Part shown: positions 20,563-62,470 of the stretch, piece by piece
How positions within the stretch are numbered: position 1 is the stretch's first letter
Layout: each line of letters starts with the position of its first letter
Source: a phage
Direction: 5' to 3' (one strand)
DNA: 64,000 bases
Sequence record: PQ724393.1
Made by a program: the position numbers and the translations under genes
Notes under the pieces: generated by a model
The model's database searches: none
Seen by the model: the letters and a program-made list of their open reading frames with translations, nothing else
Told to the model about the DNA's origin: nothing

Positions 20563-21456
20563 TTAAAGGACCACGTCCTCATAACTTGGCATTTCGTGCC
20601 CAGAATGGATATGGGCACCGAAATAAATGAATTCAGCCAGACCAGGATGGAATACTAAACCTGGGTTCTCATGATAAATGATATGCGGTCTTGATTTCAG
20701 AATCTGATAATACTCAACCTTACTCGGTTTGAATTTAACAATCTCTACATCAGGACGATAGTCTTCACGCTTAAATGAATCATTAGGGTTGGTGATATAA
20801 AGACGAGCACCTTCAGCCGCAGCTTGGTCTACAACTCTTTCGAATTGATAGCACTTATCCGAAATACGGAATGGATGGAAAATACCATCAATTTTAATAG
20901 GCGCTAGACCTTCAGAGTAACGCTCAATTACTGCAGGATTAATTACCTTTTGGTCTACAAAAATCTTATCAGAGGATGCACCTCGTGACACCAGGACGTC
21001 TTTCTGGCATTGATTCAGGACTGTAGTATAAAGTGAACGTTCAACTGAAGCCACATCAATATCAATGAACTCGTCGATATAATAACGAGGAACTTCAGGG
21101 TCCATTGTGATATTAAAGTTGAATTGTACAGTATGAGCACCATCATAACCTGTGATATCGGTTACCAGTCCTGAGCAATCATAGTATTCGATTAGTGAAT
21201 CGACTACAAACTCATTTTCAGACCAGAAATGTTTACGGGTTTCATAAGCATTTTCTTTATACCAAAGTGGTACGAAATTCAGTTCTGGGAATAATTCAAT
21301 GCATTCTTTGATATCGCTCGAATTTCTAGGATAAGCCAGATAATCACCTGGACGAGCACGATTTAAATGGAGTTGAAAATTGCCGTCCTTAAGGACGGCA
21401 TATTCACCTGTTTCGTAACTACGCATACTGAAAATAGGAACGATAAACAAACTCAT
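20563..21456 (-). CDS. hypothetical protein (297 aa) in beta-glucosyltransferase slot
   Basis: No similarity to recalled T4 beta-gt; ATGA-coupled to gene 42 stop. Confidence 0.6.
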   Translation of the reverse strand: MSLFIVPIFSMRSYETGEYAVLKDGNFQLHLNRARPGDYLAYPRNSSDIKECIELFPELNFVPLWYKENAYETRKHFWSENEFVVDSLIEYYDCSGLVTDITGYDGAHTVQFNFNITMDPEVPRYYIDEFIDIDVASVERSLYTTVLNQCQKDVLVSRGASSDKIFVDQKVINPAVIERYSEGLAPIKIDGIFHPFRISDKCYQFERVVDQAAAEGARLYITNPNDSFKREDYRPDVEIVKFKPSKVEYYQILKSRPHIIYHENPGLVFHPGLAEFIYFGAHIHSGHEMPSYEDVVL

Positions 21457-22151
21457 TTCAGGAAACCTCGGACGTAGTCAAAATCACGTTCAAACACGTG
21501 TGCACTTACCATGGTGTGGGAATACGTACCTAAACCAACACCACACTGTTCAGCAATAAATGCCATCAGTTTACCCTGCAGATAGAAATCCAGCTGCATA
21601 ACAACAGCGCAGTTTTGTGAACGCATATGGGTGTGTGCATACAAACGCCCGTCACGAATATAATACGTTACCGAATCGGTGCAAGGGTATTCTAAGGATT
21701 CGTCAGAATCAAGGAGGGCTTGGTCTTGTTCTTGGAGAATCTGGAACACAACTCTTCGCGAGTTGGCCTTTTCTTTAAGCTCTTTAAGTAGGGCTGGGAG
21801 TTGGGCCGCAATTCGAGGTCCATAGAAAGTGTTGAAGTTTGCAGGCAATACGTCACTTTTCGGCTTATCAATGAACTTAGCAACATTAGGGTATTCCTTA
21901 AATGCTTCGGCAGCGTCAGTACCACCAGAAATCATAAATTTCCAAAAGGATTCGGCATATTCATAACTGATACGATTGATACGTGGGTCGGTGAATTTAT
22001 AGGTGCTGACATCCAGTACTTCTATAGAAGCAGAACCAATTTCATAACAACGTCCGATACGAGAATCAACTGCAAACTGTGGAGCTTCCAGGATTTCTTC
22101 GTTCATTTGTTTAAATGCATTTTCAAAACTAACAGCGGTAATGTGTTTCAT
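21453..22151 (-). CDS. 42: dCMP hydroxymethylase-like enzyme (thymidylate synthase fold), gp42 position
   Basis: 232 aa; EYPCTDSVTYYIRD...HMRSQN resembles T4 gp42 FMCTNTVQYLIRD...MRSND; divergent. Confidence 0.7.
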   Translation of the reverse strand: MKHITAVSFENAFKQMNEEILEAPQFAVDSRIGRCYEIGSASIEVLDVSTYKFTDPRINRISYEYAESFWKFMISGGTDAAEAFKEYPNVAKFIDKPKSDVLPANFNTFYGPRIAAQLPALLKELKEKANSRRVVFQILQEQDQALLDSDESLEYPCTDSVTYYIRDGRLYAHTHMRSQNCAVVMQLDFYLQGKLMAFIAEQCGVGLGTYSHTMVSAHVFERDFDYVRGFLK

Positions 22152-22684
22152 TTATTCACCTTATTTTCAATATATTCGTTCAGACGTTTTAATTCTACCA
22201 TATCAACATTAAGCAAATTATTATGGCCGTCATGATTTAAGATTTTAAACACGTTTTCAAAACATGTTTCGTATTGCTGGATAGTTAGGTTGAACTCATC
22301 TTTGGTTAATTTAATAAGGTCATCTTCGAAGTCTTCGTCTAATGGGTTGCGAGTTAAAATAACTTCGATAACGTTAAATTCAGATTTAAACCCTTTCCAA
22401 TCTTCCAGTTCTACATAAGGGTCCATTTCACCACGAAGGAATCCCGAGTAAACAATATTACTAGGATACCCACGGTCTAAGATGTAGACAAAATTAGGGT
22501 CTAAAAACTTATACAGAGTTTCAACTAAAGCCTTGTCATTATCAGTCCCTAATGAAATGCATTTGCCATTAATCTTTTTAGGGAAATCAATAAGACGATA
22601 TTTCTTATCAGATAAAAGTGATTCAATTAAAGTAGACTTCCCGGAATTATCCGGGCCGTCGATAACAATGATTTTTGGTTTCAC
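22148..22684 (-). CDS. P-loop kinase (thymidylate/dNMP-kinase-like)
   Basis: 178 aa; Walker A IIVIDGPDNSGKST, DRGY motif; GTG start overlapping upstream stop. Confidence 0.6.
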   Translation of the reverse strand: MKPKIIVIDGPDNSGKSTLIESLLSDKKYRLIDFPKKINGKCISLGTDNDKALVETLYKFLDPNFVYILDRGYPSNIVYSGFLRGEMDPYVELEDWKGFKSEFNVIEVILTRNPLDEDFEDDLIKLTKDEFNLTIQQYETCFENVFKILNHDGHNNLLNVDMVELKRLNEYIENKVNK

Positions 22685-23064
22685 GGATGATATGCCTTAT
22701 AACTATCAAGAGTTCCTTCACGAACCAATTCTTTAAAGTGGTCTGGACGGATTGCTCGGTCATCGATGATAAAAGTATAACTCGGCTTGTGTGTAAGCAA
22801 ATTGTGATATTTCAATCCAATTTTTTCAAGGTTCTTAACCAATGCAGGAACTACTTCAACCAAGATTCGACCTGGGCCACATGAAGTCATGCCACGGGCA
22901 GTGAATAATGTAATCTCGTACCCTTCATCATAAAGCTTATTAATCATGGACACCATTTCGGTGTCCGGTTTAAAGTTCTCATAATCACGGTCATGGTTCC
23001 AAATCGTGATTGTGTTATCGATATCAAAACATAAATGTGGCTTATTTTCTACTCGATGCGACAT
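22681..23064 (-). CDS. HAD-superfamily phosphatase
   Basis: 127 aa; motif I CFDIDNTIT (DxDxT); start reset to ATG 23064 (TAATG overlap). Confidence 0.6.
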   Translation of the reverse strand: MSHRVENKPHLCFDIDNTITIWNHDRDYENFKPDTEMVSMINKLYDEGYEITLFTARGMTSCGPGRILVEVVPALVKNLEKIGLKYHNLLTHKPSYTFIIDDRAIRPDHFKELVREGTLDSYKAYHP

Positions 23065-24737
23065 TAAATTTTCTTCCATTGTTTGTGGAGTTCAGTAGAA
23101 CCTGTAGGTTTATATTTTACACCAGTTTCCTGGTCAAGCAAAACCCACTTATCAGGACAACGAGTAATAATTTGAGCCGTGATAGGGTCACGAACTTCAT
23201 CGACAAATTCACCAGTAATAAGCTTACGCTTACGAGGATGCCGCTTCAGCAGCACACTCAGTTGGTACAAACCGTTATAATAAGCACCCAGAGCTTTCAG
23301 AGGGTTATTCTTAAAGTAACCTGCCAGAGCCATCCAAATAACAGCAATCCAGAGCTTGTGCTTAAATGTGCACATAGGAATATCGTCTAAAGGCATAACC
23401 TTTTCAATATCAACGAATACACGAGTTCCATTACGAGTTAATCCACCCCATAGAGGGTCTGAGTTAAATTTGTCATAGCCATCGATAGAATAAAGCACCT
23501 TAGCTTCATCATAAATCGCAGGGCCTTTAGAACTATTACCGAAATAACCACGTGGGTCGATGATTTTAATATCACCTTCGTCCGACAGCATAATATTACT
23601 GTAGTGCGGGTCGCCATGAATAAGTTGGTACGGCTCTTTATGTTCAGACAGAATTTCTAGTGCGTGGCGGAGAAGTTTTTCAGGGTCGCCTACTTTGAAA
23701 TCGTTAACATGGGTAATGCCTTGTGGAGCAAAGCCTTCAATCAATCCAGCAATAGAAGCATTACGAATAAGGACCTTGTCCAATACTTCTTTCTTAACAT
23801 CAGAATACCATTGCTCATCGGACGGATTATCGATAGTTCCACCAAATGAACGTAATGCACTAATGACCTTATAAACCATGAGGACTTTAGTTTCTTTAGA
23901 CATAAACCGGTAGGCATCTGCCATGGTGCGACCAAAGATACGTTCCATTTTAATGAATTCGCCTGGAGCAAAGTCTACAATGCTCGGAACAAATTCAGAA
24001 TCAATAGAATTATACCAATTGATTTCTTTAGATTGGATTTCTTTACCTAATTCGTTGGTAGGTACTTTAATAGCCAGATTCTCAGTGAACTCTAATTTAT
24101 TAAATTCACGGTTAATTTCAGAATCTTCATGGGCCCTAGCCAGTTTCAATTTGTCACCGACATCAACCACAAAGTCCAGCTTACGTTCAGTCAAATGGAC
24201 CATCGAATCCAGGTTGTCTGCAAGGTCTTCGCCATAATTAGAACGGTCGAAACCTGTCCAATTAGCCACCTGATACAAACCAACCACACCACCGCCAGTA
24301 CCAATTTCACGCAAGTACGGTTCTTCAAATGTAAAACGACAGTCGGTCCCATAGGTATAACAGTAGTCGTTATCCCACTCAACTTTATGACCTTCAGGAA
24401 TAATATCACACCAGTTAAACAAGACATTATGCCCGATGATATCTTCGGCAATGCAATCGATAGCATGAGCTGAACCGTTGGCCACATCTACGTTACGAAT
24501 AGTGAATTTAGGCTTATCACTGGTAATCATGTTAATGGATTTAATGTAACCCTTAACGAGGTCATTAAATTTGCTGTGAATAACCAGAATAATTTCATCT
24601 GATTGGTTACTATACAAATCATACAAATGTTTTAGTACTGTATGCTGTTTGTAGTTAACCAATACCTTCGGGATTTCGTTAGTAATTGGATACAACCGTG
24701 AGCCAAGACCCGCGCCTAAAATAACAACCTTTTTCAT
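23064..24737 (-). CDS. bifunctional sugar-1-phosphate nucleotidyltransferase / kinase
   Basis: 557 aa; N-terminus VVILGAGLGSRLYPIT (GxGxRL of RmlA/GlmU-type); C-terminus LIHGDPHYSNIMLSDEGDIKIIDPRGYF (HGD..N...D APH/choline-kinase-like); SD GAGGAA before ATG 24737. Confidence 0.7.
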   Translation of the reverse strand: MKKVVILGAGLGSRLYPITNEIPKVLVNYKQHTVLKHLYDLYSNQSDEIILVIHSKFNDLVKGYIKSINMITSDKPKFTIRNVDVANGSAHAIDCIAEDIIGHNVLFNWCDIIPEGHKVEWDNDYCYTYGTDCRFTFEEPYLREIGTGGGVVGLYQVANWTGFDRSNYGEDLADNLDSMVHLTERKLDFVVDVGDKLKLARAHEDSEINREFNKLEFTENLAIKVPTNELGKEIQSKEINWYNSIDSEFVPSIVDFAPGEFIKMERIFGRTMADAYRFMSKETKVLMVYKVISALRSFGGTIDNPSDEQWYSDVKKEVLDKVLIRNASIAGLIEGFAPQGITHVNDFKVGDPEKLLRHALEILSEHKEPYQLIHGDPHYSNIMLSDEGDIKIIDPRGYFGNSSKGPAIYDEAKVLYSIDGYDKFNSDPLWGGLTRNGTRVFVDIEKVMPLDDIPMCTFKHKLWIAVIWMALAGYFKNNPLKALGAYYNGLYQLSVLLKRHPRKRKLITGEFVDEVRDPITAQIITRCPDKWVLLDQETGVKYKPTGSTELHKQWKKI

Positions 24738-24797
24738 TATCTGTTCCTCAAGTGAATGTAGGTACATTATACACTATTTTTAATAAATTGGTATTGC

Positions 24798-47165: not shown

Positions 47166-47387
47166 AATTGCGCTCCAATAATTATGGAAGCGGATATTAT
47201 TGATAGCCCAGTTAATACAACGTCTTATCTGCTTAGTCGTAGGCTTGCATACGTACTTGAAATTGATTCTTCTACCGGTTTCTCTACAAACTACTTCAAG
47301 ATACCAACGACAGGTTTTATGAGGTCTTCCATATGACAGGAAAACCTTGATTTCTTCTTTAACGGTAATAAGAGTTGTGGTTGTCAA
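47163..47387 (-). CDS. small basic protein, PTKRQ-motif family
   Basis: CKPTTKQIRRCINW; stop inside terminator hairpin. Confidence 0.45.
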   Translation of the reverse strand: MTTTTLITVKEEIKVFLSYGRPHKTCRWYLEVVCRETGRRINFKYVCKPTTKQIRRCINWAINNIRFHNYWSAI

Positions 47388-48369
47388 GATACACCTCTTC
47401 GACGAACTTGTCCCAGAACTTCATGTCCACCTTCGCAGGCATACCGTTCTTAGCAGCCCAGATGGCATTGGTTTCGACTTCGTCTACAATAGCTTCAAGT
47501 TCGGCCTGCACATCTTTAAAAGCATGTAACCCCTGTTTGATTTCAAGGATAAATGGCGCAGTACGTAAAGGGTATTGAAGGTCACCAGTTTGATAGATTT
47601 CCTTCAACTGGTATCCGGCCCTATAAGCATGACTCAGAGCTTTCCAGTCAATACCTTCATTGGCTTCTGCCTTACGAGCACGTTCACCATATTCGGCGTC
47701 AAGCTTATTCAGAGATTGCTTGAGCTCGATTAATGACAAAGTAGTCTGATATTTACGTCCGAGAACAGTATAGAACGTTTGTGGGCCTGTTTTCTCATGG
47801 TTATGGAATACCCATTCACAGAATTCGTTTTCAGGGAGCCGATGTTTGATATCTTCTACCTTAGTGCGACGAAGACGGTCCGGAATTCCTTCTTGATAAT
47901 CAACCCATTGTTCAGGAATCTGGTTGACTATTGCCAATACACCACGCAGAGCAGCCAGTCGAGAACCTTTAACACCATATTTGGAAGCTTGCTTGCGGAC
48001 ATACCCTAAATAGGCTTTCATGTTGGTTGTATAGAACCGTGAACGGTTGTCTTGGATAAATTTCCATACGTCAGGTAAATCGGATTTGACAACCAGGTCA
48101 GCCGGTGTGTGAATCATGTCCAGGGCAACGGTTTCGCCATCGGCTGCCAGTTTAAAGAAATATTTCAGACTATAAAGTTCATGGTCAACATCATCTTTTG
48201 TATTTTTGGTAGCCGTGTTATTCGTGTTCAGGTTTGTATGGTTCATAGCCGTACCTAACAGAATATCACGCGGATGTGGAACAAAGATTTCTTTAAAATC
48301 GATATCAGATTCCGGAGTACTTGTTCCATAAAGGTGGGAGCCAAAATATCCCTTCATAACTGTTCTCAT
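47359..48369 (-). CDS. nucleotidyltransferase-fold protein (Pol-beta superfamily)
   Basis: 336 aa; N-terminal FGSHLYGTSTPESDIDF (GS-x9-13-DxD signature). Confidence 0.6.
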   Translation of the reverse strand: MRTVMKGYFGSHLYGTSTPESDIDFKEIFVPHPRDILLGTAMNHTNLNTNNTATKNTKDDVDHELYSLKYFFKLAADGETVALDMIHTPADLVVKSDLPDVWKFIQDNRSRFYTTNMKAYLGYVRKQASKYGVKGSRLAALRGVLAIVNQIPEQWVDYQEGIPDRLRRTKVEDIKHRLPENEFCEWVFHNHEKTGPQTFYTVLGRKYQTTLSLIELKQSLNKLDAEYGERARKAEANEGIDWKALSHAYRAGYQLKEIYQTGDLQYPLRTAPFILEIKQGLHAFKDVQAELEAIVDEVETNAIWAAKNGMPAKVDMKFWDKFVEEVYLDNHNSYYR

Positions 48370-59498: not shown

Positions 59499-59727
59499 CG
59501 TCTCGTTCCCACGATTGTTTAAAGATATCTTGCATAATAATTTGAAGTCTATTTTCTGATGATGGACTTTCACTATCAGACACTTGAAGCATATAGTCAC
59601 CAATAGGACAGAACATATCCATATCGCTTTCTAAGTCTTCTTTGATTTTCTCTTCTGACGTTCCGGTATCATAGGAATACAGATAAGAATCACATGACTC
59701 AGATTTAATATAAATTGCAATACTCAT
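59491..59727 (-). CDS. hypothetical acidic protein (78 aa)
   Basis: Track ORF. Confidence 0.45.
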   Translation of the reverse strand: MSIAIYIKSESCDSYLYSYDTGTSEEKIKEDLESDMDMFCPIGDYMLQVSDSESPSSENRLQIIMQDIFKQSWERDDE

Positions 59728-60317
59728 TTACGGCATTCCTTAATAAACTCATTTAAATTATGTTTGTTTTTACCTTCGTCGTAAAGACGTTGTTGACGAC
59801 GTAAACGCCATGGCATTTCAATAGCCAAGCACCAAATACTTAAAGCAGCGCCAGCTGTGAAAAGATTCATTAATCCGGCGCCAATAATAGTTCGTTCTAG
59901 CGCATCATTCCAGTTAGCATCGATTAAAAATGAACTCAACACTAACATTGGAAGTAAAGTAATAAAATACGCTACAACATATCGTCCGAACGTAAGCCAT
60001 TCAGTATCGATGAGCTTAGCCTTTCCATCTTGGAGACAAATATACTTATCGTCAGTGCGGGTGATTTTCTTTACCGGTTGCCAACCATTTACGATATAAC
60101 CCATTCTGAACTCCTCAATTAAAAGCTGTTTCATTTCGGCAGTACAACCTGACCAATCTATTGTACTGGCTGAAATTCCTTCATCACAGTCATCGATATT
60201 TCGCCAGGACTTTTTAATAATCATATGTTCACCACTTGGGATAATAATTCCAGCATTTTCCGACCGACGGATGAAGTTTGTATCAATACCCATACAACCA
60301 GGTTCATAAAGGGCCAT
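59724..60317 (-). CDS. membrane protein (197 aa)
   Basis: Two C-terminal TM helices. Confidence 0.5.
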   Translation of the reverse strand: MALYEPGCMGIDTNFIRRSENAGIIIPSGEHMIIKKSWRNIDDCDEGISASTIDWSGCTAEMKQLLIEEFRMGYIVNGWQPVKKITRTDDKYICLQDGKAKLIDTEWLTFGRYVVAYFITLLPMLVLSSFLIDANWNDALERTIIGAGLMNLFTAGAALSIWCLAIEMPWRLRRQQRLYDEGKNKHNLNEFIKECRK

Positions 60318-61003
60318 TACCAGCCCTCCATAGGAAATTCCAGATATACTTGAGCATTAACGCGGATTTCATTTGTAATCTTTTTAACACGGTCGGTATT
60401 ACGAGACACACGACCAAACCAGCGCCACCCGTTACTTACTGCACGAGAACCTGTATGCCATGTTTGCCAATCAAACTGGAGTAACGTGCGGTCAGGAGCA
60501 TCCCACTTGGTTAATTCATTGGACTCAATTTTTTCCAGAACTTCTTTATGCCACTGGCGATAGATAAGTTCGCCTTCAGGAATCTGACTGAACTGTGCAG
60601 TTCCGGTTGCAAAATGAGTAGGACACACATCAGCATTAACAAGACCAAGAATATGTTCAGAATGGTATCGAGGATTATCATAATCAGGTTGCCCTGCGGT
60701 AATAAAGTGTTGACCCACCGGAATATCTGGACGTGGTACATCATCATGGTGGAAGCCTGGAATTGCAGGGTACCAGCCGGGCATTAACATGTGTACACGG
60801 GAATCAAATACGCATTCAACGGCTTTCCACTCATCAGGGAGATTAGTAATAAAGCTACGAGTAATAGGACCACCATTTTGTGCAGCAAAATTCAAATCAC
60901 AGTTAAAGAACATAGGCTCGTTTTTAATATCATCATTAGAAATATGACCTGCAAAACCACCTACTGCACGAGCTTTAGAATTAAAAGTTTTTGGACCGTT
61001 CAT
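60317..61003 (-). CDS. putative Fe(II)/2-oxoglutarate-dependent oxygenase-like protein
   Basis: 228 aa; candidate HxD (GFHHDD) and distal His/Arg (WHTGSRAVSNGWRWFGRVS); SD GAGGAAAA. Confidence 0.5.
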   Translation of the reverse strand: MNGPKTFNSKARAVGGFAGHISNDDIKNEPMFFNCDLNFAAQNGGPITRSFITNLPDEWKAVECVFDSRVHMLMPGWYPAIPGFHHDDVPRPDIPVGQHFITAGQPDYDNPRYHSEHILGLVNADVCPTHFATGTAQFSQIPEGELIYRQWHKEVLEKIESNELTKWDAPDRTLLQFDWQTWHTGSRAVSNGWRWFGRVSRNTDRVKKITNEIRVNAQVYLEFPMEGW

Positions 61004-61017
61004 AATATTTTCCTCAC

Positions 61018-61308: not shown

Positions 61309-62268
61309 TTATTTTTCGAAAGGACGAATTAAATGATGGTTATCTTGGAAACGCTTGATGTAGTCGTTTTCACCTAAAGTCTTATACATATTCACTACAG
61401 CTTGGTAGTTTTCCCAGGCGTACTCGCGGAACCAACCTGAAGTGATTGAGGTACACACTTTCTCAAGAGCCATATAAAAACTTAATGATGGTGAAATATT
61501 GAAGTCATTAGGAACCTGTGAACGTTCTAGTGCCAGGACACAAGTTTCTTCATATACACCAGCCAGTTTAATAGCTTCGGGCAAAGCCTCGAACTTCTCA
61601 CGAGAGGTCATGACTTCAGAACCTTCCTTCATATAAAAGGTATATGCAGGGCGTCCAGCCAATGCTACTGCTTCATGAATAGAGTCATGGTCCAGCGTAT
61701 AAATGGTATCATTAAAGAACGATGATTTGTTTACGTCCAATTTAGGGTGAGAATAGCTCAACGTTTCTTTTTGACGTTGCAACATAATTTCCCGGAGTTC
61801 TTCGTTCAGGGTGATACCTTTATTACGAAGGTATTTGATGTGGGACATAGTTTTCAAGAAGAACGGATTATTCTTCAGGAAACGATGAGAGGTTTTGATA
61901 GCCAGACAGATATCAGGCGTTGCCCAATAGAAACCAGTAAGACGGTCCTTTTTAATATGATTTTCAGCATATTTCAGGAGACGATAACTTGAAGTGAAAT
62001 CTTCGTCTTGAAGCTCGCCAGTAATTTCTCGTACGTTAGTCAGAGCACGGACAATATAAGCTTCAAAATAGGTTTCTTTACCATTGTACATACATTTAAA
62101 GGCCTGGACATCAGGATTATCCACAGGAACATGAGCGCCGAACATCCGGGCTTTAAAGTGATTCCATGAGCCTTGGTCGGCAATGAAATCCCAATCAGAA
62201 TTTTCGATATGCTTACTTTCAATCAGACCAGCGTGGTGCAGTGCACGAGAACCAATAACTAGCATCAT
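61309..62268 (-). CDS. nucleotidyltransferase-fold protein (319 aa)
   Basis: N-terminal IGSRALHHAGLIESKHIENSDWDF fits hGSxAxG...SDxDh minimal NTase signature; SD GAGGAAAA. Confidence 0.5.
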   Translation of the reverse strand: MMLVIGSRALHHAGLIESKHIENSDWDFIADQGSWNHFKARMFGAHVPVDNPDVQAFKCMYNGKETYFEAYIVRALTNVREITGELQDEDFTSSYRLLKYAENHIKKDRLTGFYWATPDICLAIKTSHRFLKNNPFFLKTMSHIKYLRNKGITLNEELREIMLQRQKETLSYSHPKLDVNKSSFFNDTIYTLDHDSIHEAVALAGRPAYTFYMKEGSEVMTSREKFEALPEAIKLAGVYEETCVLALERSQVPNDFNISPSLSFYMALEKVCTSITSGWFREYAWENYQAVVNMYKTLGENDYIKRFQDNHHLIRPFEK

Positions 62269-62281
62269 AATATTTTCCTCA

Positions 62282-62449
62282 TTAATAAAGACGAGTTACT
62301 TCATATTTACCCAGTTCAGATTTTTTTGCTTCAATACGCGTTGCGGCTAGATTAGCAGCCTCTAGTGAAGAAAATTGGACCACTTGGGAAGTATTCTGCC
62401 TTACGCCACCTTGTGGGTGAGTAACAAAAACAATAAGAACATTATACAT
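62282..62449 (-). CDS. hypothetical small protein (55 aa)
   Basis: Not in track; SD GAGGAAAA; own translation MYNVLIVFVTHPQGGVRQNTSQVVQF... Confidence 0.4.
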   Translation of the reverse strand: MYNVLIVFVTHPQGGVRQNTSQVVQFSSLEAANLAATRIEAKKSELGKYEVTRLY

Positions 62450-62470
62450 AATATTTTCCTCAGAGTAAAC

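Follow-up and report, generated by a model that had tools for sequence, protein, structure and literature searches.

Does the 228-aa open reading frame (ORF) that lies among the early genes of this phage encode an Fe(II)/2-oxoglutarate (2OG)-dependent oxygenase, and does such an enzyme belong to the modification cassette found elsewhere on the same DNA? A preliminary description had proposed the enzyme class from two sequence motifs and had pointed to the cassette as a relevant context. We followed up both proposals in the whole stretch of 64,000 nucleotides (the window; record PQ724393.1), which belongs to a T4-like Dhakavirus coliphage (Straboviridae). At the DNA level, the ORF is 100% identical to its counterpart in Escherichia phage fDHCT2, 98% to that in WG01 and 93% to that in Bp7, and public classification places WG01 and Bp7 in the T4-like genus Dhakavirus of the Straboviridae. 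As set out below, the ORF very probably encodes an Fe(II)/2OG-dependent oxygenase, and the family to which it belongs is large, specific to phages and uncharacterised.

The gene and its phage-restricted family

The ORF occupies positions 60317..61003, in agreement with the preliminary description; according to the list of reading frames, it is on the minus strand and starts with ATG. A Shine-Dalgarno sequence, GAGGA (61011..61015, minus strand), is located 7 nt upstream of the ATG. At its other end, the gene overlaps the following gene, which encodes an e.2-like predicted membrane protein (59724..60317, minus strand), in a TAATG stop/start arrangement (60315..60319, minus strand), and this overlap suggests that the translation of the two genes is probably coupled. 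The ORF is a real gene and not a chance reading frame, since its homologues form 1322 clusters at 90% identity and 615 clusters at 50% identity, and are present in 473 phage genome records. Ranked by organism name, these records are headed by Escherichia (201), followed by Aeromonas (63), Mycobacterium (33), Klebsiella (26) and Gordonia (22), and the matches listed also include phages of Bacillus, Stenotrophomonas, Serratia and Alteromonas. The family was found solely in phages, prophage-like contigs and phage-sized contigs.

The protein matches PHROG 1843 from end to end, a family that is labelled as being of unknown function. Searches with curated models were largely silent. The 228-aa protein alone had no Pfam match at E <= 10, and single scans of 107 family members gave nothing useful, with one hit to 2OG-FeII_Oxy_5 (E 0.045) and one to PhyH (E 0.068); the family did not reach the curated thresholds of PhyH (PF05721) or of the other 2OG oxygenase models. 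NCBIfam and PADLOC had no match to the protein, and sequence searches of the PDB, with the single protein as well as with a profile of the 107 members, returned no meaningful relative. In the literature, we found no characterised member of the family and no anti-defence role for it. Some databases already flag relatives as PhyH or 2OG oxygenases, with the name "Phytanoyl-CoA dioxygenase family protein" given to Aeromonas phage members in UniRef and "2OG-Fe(II) oxygenase" to the homologue in Citrobacter phage Ursula. The gene is a divergent member of a well-known superfamily. Two homologues bear structural names, "tail sheath monomer" or "baseplate hub subunit", in phage vB_EcoM_005 (MK295203.1) and Yersinia phage vB_YenM_P8 (XAO54413.1), and these names look like annotation errors.

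The gene is not intact in every phage. It is split into three pieces in Aeromonas phage 65 (NC_015251.1, 182773-183458), is also broken up in Aeromonas phage 44RR2.8t.2, and occurs as partial copies in other phages. The truncated genes include 73-aa remnants and copies with 28-46% coverage, and the phages concerned include Escherichia phages AV115 and BEU50. The fragmented and partial copies indicate that the gene is dispensable, which is consistent with an accessory gene. At the other extreme of length, the long homologues contain no recognisable fused domains.

Active-site signature and predicted fold

The motifs named in the preliminary description are in place, residue 83 being the first of GFHHDD and residue 182 the first of WHTGSRAVSNGWRWFGRVS, and the spacing that it gave as about 100 residues is 98 residues from H85 to H183. 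We examined the conservation of these motifs in an alignment of 107 diverse members, which share 31-81% identity with the query and have a mean column identity of 27%. H85 and R194 are conserved in 100% of the members, D87, H183, R198 and D67 in 99%, and R91, Y220, R214, W228, Q105, H117, E29 and N211 in 93-98%. As judged from this alignment, the conservation of the motif residues is far beyond chance. H86 and D88, on the other hand, are conserved among close relatives only, and their variability identifies H85-x-D87...H183 as the candidate triad, with R194 at the position His+11. The conservation pattern therefore contains the HxD/E...H facial triad of the Fe(II)/2OG superfamily. It also contains a basic residue on the last core strand, where enzymes of the superfamily hold the C5 carboxylate of 2OG, as the invariant R194 lies 11 residues after H183, on the following strand; R198 is located four residues further along the same strand.

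We placed the motif codons on the window sequence by hand, all on the minus strand. The H85-H86-D87 codons span 60743..60751, and within them lie the codons of the two proposed iron ligands, H85 (60749-60751) and D87 (60743-60745). The codon for H183, the proposed distal iron-binding histidine, is at 60455..60457. The R194-W-F-G-R198 codons span 60410..60424, with those of R194, which would hold the C5 carboxylate of 2OG, at 60422-60424 and of R198, a candidate binder of an anionic substrate, at 60410-60412.

Departures from the signature are also informative. The only member of the 107 that lacks D87 lacks H183 and R198 as well, and two tandem-duplicated metagenomic homologues, P0137 (418 aa) and P0193 (444 aa), have C-terminal copies devoid of the HxD, the distal histidine and R194. 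Such a joint loss is expected if the motif residues form one functional site. The degenerate copies nevertheless keep the fold-determining positions and the conserved C-terminal Gly-Trp, and the tandem fusions suggest a fused pseudo-dimer and a stand-alone protein that works as a dimer.

An initial AlphaFold2 (AF2) model, built from 25 close homologues, had a pLDDT below 50 exactly across the HxD loop and was replaced by a model from the diverse alignment, with a pLDDT of 96.2 and a pTM of 0.92. In this model, the predicted core strands comprise residues 65-73, the bridge residues 78 and 85, and residues 116-122 and 129-138. They are followed by a helix (147-160) and by predicted strands at 165-168, 173-178, 182-185, which contains H183, and 192-201, which contains both R194 and R198. 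This order fits a double-stranded beta-helix (jelly-roll) core, the fold that the preliminary description would have expected of the model. In fold comparisons, human PhyH scored 7.3 and ALKBH2/3 scored 7.0, and Foldseek agreed for both models, albeit weakly (E no better than 1.4e-3, TM 0.3-0.43). The predicted structure shows the fold class clearly, with the family as a remote outlier within it.

A profile comparison with ectoine hydroxylase (EctD) gave a more local result. EctD genes were found by tblastn on plasmids, 80 genome loci were gathered, and 65 sequences were used. Local hhalign of the family profile against the 65-sequence EctD profile gave a P of 0.0018 and a probability of 15%, while the comparison with a single EctD sequence gave a probability of 2%. 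The Viterbi core scored 30, against 15.3 +/- 2.6 for column-shuffled profiles, and spans the helix together with the strand that leads up to the distal histidine, pairing FDWQTWH of the family with FDCNIMH of EctD, distal histidine on distal histidine. H85 and D87 fall on the iron ligands of the EctD WHSD motif solely in a realigned extension of low confidence, and the N-terminal half alone did not score above shuffles, yielding a spurious MLMPG/MLIPG match. At the sequence level, the comparison with EctD is positive for the distal-His element only.

Genomic setting and the cytosine hypermodification cassette

The gene belongs to a run of minus-strand genes in the order DUF7277/DUF7275 protein, small ORF, oxygenase gene, e.2-like membrane protein and 78-aa ORF, followed by nudE, e (lysozyme), the internal proteins and denV. 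The upstream neighbour (61309..62268, minus strand) encodes a 319-aa protein with the Pfam domains PF23942 and PF23940 (PHROG 2141), and the downstream e.2-like protein corresponds to phrog_2203, "membrane protein", and carries the name e.2 in the Bp7 annotation. At 19 T4-like loci, the DUF7277/DUF7275 gene lies upstream of the oxygenase gene, as it does at no locus of the other lineages. The syntenic region of T4, from denV to ipI, contains no homologue of the oxygenase gene, and this marks the gene as an accessory insertion in the variable stretch of early genes between e and the tRNAs.

A scan for promoters and terminators found 17 sites, as compared with 16.3 expected from shuffled sequence, and is thus not above chance. 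One of the sites, TTTACT-17-TATAAT (62441-62469, minus strand), resembles a T4 early promoter and is located upstream of a 55-aa ORF and the DUF7277/DUF7275 gene. Given that promoter-like sites are no commoner than in shuffles, we infer the timing of oxygenase-gene expression from its genome position only. Elsewhere in the same region, two small adjacent minus-strand ORFs, 63335-63559 (74 aa) and 63569-63799 (76 aa), match only the C-terminal ~70 residues of phrog_899 and have the appearance of a short domain duplicated in tandem.

Across the gene neighbourhoods of 85 loci, which came from viral contigs as well as from phage records, no recurring partner of the oxygenase gene emerged beyond lineage synteny. 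In other lineages, the gene is often beside a primase-helicase gene (11 loci) or a family-A DNA polymerase gene (10 loci), which places it in an early or replication module, and in prophage-like contigs it lies among early genes of the ERF, RusA and YopX types. An association with tRNA genes was considered and rejected, as these occur within 6 kb in only seven of 60 diverse loci. In cluster-M-type mycobacteriophages, as seen at the locus of Mycobacterium phage Reindeer (61862-69533), an RtcB-like RNA ligase gene and a tRNA gene precede the homologue (gp122), which lies ~2-3.5 kb downstream of them.

The hypermodification cassette of the window is located at 20563-24767 on the minus strand, and contains a 297-aa ORF, a ThyA-like gene (21453-22151, minus strand), a nucleotide kinase, a phosphosugar isomerase and a 567-aa ORF; among its products is a large putative transferase. 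A gene for an NrdC.11-type nucleotidyltransferase lies apart from it, at about 47359-48369. A 2026 study reported that RB69 and, by synteny, the Dhakaviruses make arabinosylated 5-hydroxycytosine, that the 5-hydroxyl is introduced by a ThyA homologue, and that the table of pathway enzymes is without a 2OG oxygenase (PMC13326640). In the light of this study and of the WG01 annotation, the cassette looks like an arabinosyl-5-hydroxycytosine pathway and not like the classical hydroxymethylcytosine/glucosyl system.

The preliminary description had hinted at a tie between the oxygenase and this cassette, and our analysis does not support the tie. The published pathway is complete without an oxygenase, and the cassette is ~36 kb from the oxygenase gene (about 20.5-24.8 kb versus 60.3 kb). 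The two distributions are also decoupled. Close homologues of the ThyA-like gene are found in 57 Acinetobacter phage records, and both Aeromonas and Mycobacterium are outside its ten commonest organism names, whereas the oxygenase gene shows the opposite distribution, with its 63 Aeromonas, 33 Mycobacterium and 22 Gordonia phage records. We therefore rejected the oxygenase as a component of the arabinosyl-5-hydroxycytosine pathway, as it is neither in the pathway table nor co-distributed with the pathway.

Proposed function and comparison with known systems

The enzyme class proposed at the outset is supported by the fold class together with the 99-100% conservation of the motif residues. We consider it likely that the protein is a stand-alone, catalytically competent Fe(II)/2OG oxygenase of a divergent, phage-restricted family, an enzyme for which we infer metal and 2OG binding as well as catalysis. 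By analogy with the superfamily, Fe(II) would be bound by H85, D87 and H183, and 2OG would chelate the iron, with its C5 carboxylate held by R194. In the reaction with O2, 2OG would be oxidatively decarboxylated, with succinate and CO2 as products, and the resulting Fe(IV)=O species would hydroxylate or otherwise oxidise the substrate. The predicted substrate pocket would be lined by the near-invariant polar residues R198, R91, R69, R214, D67, E29, H117, N211 and Y220. The most likely substrate may be an anionic small metabolite or a nucleotide-like compound. The arguments for a small anionic molecule rather than a nucleic acid are weak ones, namely the Arg-rich pocket, the mildly acidic character of the family (median pI 6.2), and the fact that small-molecule enzymes head the fold comparison. 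Lying among consecutive early-region genes of the same strand, and probably coupled in translation to the e.2-like gene, the oxygenase gene would serve as a dispensable accessory in host takeover or metabolism, outside the cytosine hypermodification pathway.

Other readings of the same fold deserve consideration. The enzyme might oxidise nucleic acids, acting in the manner of AlkB or TET on DNA, RNA or tRNA, or adding an extra step to cytosine hypermodification. This appears unlikely, given that the arabinosyl-5-hydroxycytosine pathway takes its hydroxyl from a ThyA homologue and contains no oxygenase (PMC13326640), and given the distance to the cassette and the decoupled distributions described above. 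The scarcity of tRNA genes near the family, its mildly acidic pI and the ranking of PhyH-like small-molecule enzymes above AlkB in the fold comparison also argue against it. The weak matches to the cupin model AraC_binding in 4 of the 107 members, and the distant nature of the structural similarity to bona fide 2OG enzymes, would instead suit a double-stranded beta-helix metalloprotein that makes no use of 2OG, such as a cupin-type dioxygenase, an isomerase, an epimerase or a 2OG-independent oxidase, a reading that we regard as quite improbable.

The degenerate copies in the fusion proteins, which have lost the catalytic residues, raise the further idea that the family keeps an oxygenase-like fold for a non-catalytic purpose, as a binder or sponge, as an inhibitor acting on a host protein or as part of the virion, and the two public records with structural names point in the same direction. 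However, these two names stand amid hundreds of "hypothetical protein" records and resemble annotation errors, and the gene is found among early genes and not in structural modules. Moreover, the near-complete conservation of the candidate catalytic residues in the stand-alone proteins indicates selection for chemistry, so that a purely non-catalytic role seems very improbable. The preferred reading, a catalytic Fe(II)/2OG oxygenase, could also be extended to a substrate class new to phage 2OG enzymes, such as a host nucleotide-derived immune signal, an alarmone, a host protein or tRNA. We consider this extension unlikely. If true, it would amount to a novel enzymatic way of taking over the host or of countering its defences, one carried alike by T4-like phages, phages with a T7-like replication module, actinobacteriophages and temperate phages.

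The family is very widespread among phages and has an intact oxygenase active-site signature, with neither a solved structure nor a curated model. Knowing the enzyme class focuses experimental work on assays of metal and 2OG, on metabolomics and on knockouts, and with a Pfam or PHROG annotation, hundreds of genomes of therapeutic phages would have one "hypothetical protein" fewer. In this window, the result also sets the oxygenase gene apart from the cytosine hypermodification cassette.

Among known systems, T4-like cyanophages carry genes for 2OG-Fe(II) oxygenases and "PhyH-domain" proteins of unknown substrate, which have been proposed to affect 2OG/succinate pools or DNA repair (Sullivan et al. 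2010, PMC3037559). These are likewise 2OG oxygenase-type genes of T4-like phages, although no cyanophage was among the matches listed for the present family, whose hosts are enterobacteria, Aeromonas, actinobacteria and Bacillus. Phage enzymes that oxygenate pyrimidines are represented by TET/JBP and by the ThyA-like 5-hydroxy-dCMP synthase of RB69 (PMC13326640), and the ThyA-like pathway is present in this window as well. The phage family differs from them in fold family or in chemistry, and the gene distributions are decoupled.

In the AlkB family, E. coli AlkB has its arginine at His+17, as compared with His+11 in the phage family. Membership in the AlkB family was rejected, since AlkB ranks below the PhyH-like enzymes, the arginine spacing is different, no AlkB nucleotide-recognition lid could be identified in the phage protein, and the family is acidic and not basic. 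In the TauD/TfdA/AtsK group, the residues are arranged as H-x10-R-x3-R, as they are in the phage family, and in TauD the two arginines bind 2OG and the anionic group of the substrate, respectively. This arrangement is the lead from which we propose R198 as the binder of an anionic substrate.

The PhyH-like/clavaminate-synthase-like set, which comprises EasH (4NAO), the proline hydroxylase H11 (7DZZ), EctD (4NMI) and human PhyH (2A1X), shares less than 15% identity with the phage family in structural alignments. The phage protein is shorter than these enzymes, with 228 aa versus 250-310, and the family is distinguished by a loop of ~30 residues between the HxD and the next core strand and by its conserved C-terminal Gly-Trp. 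Within the set, the retrieved EctD sequence has the same spacing from the distal histidine to the arginine, His+11, as the phage family.
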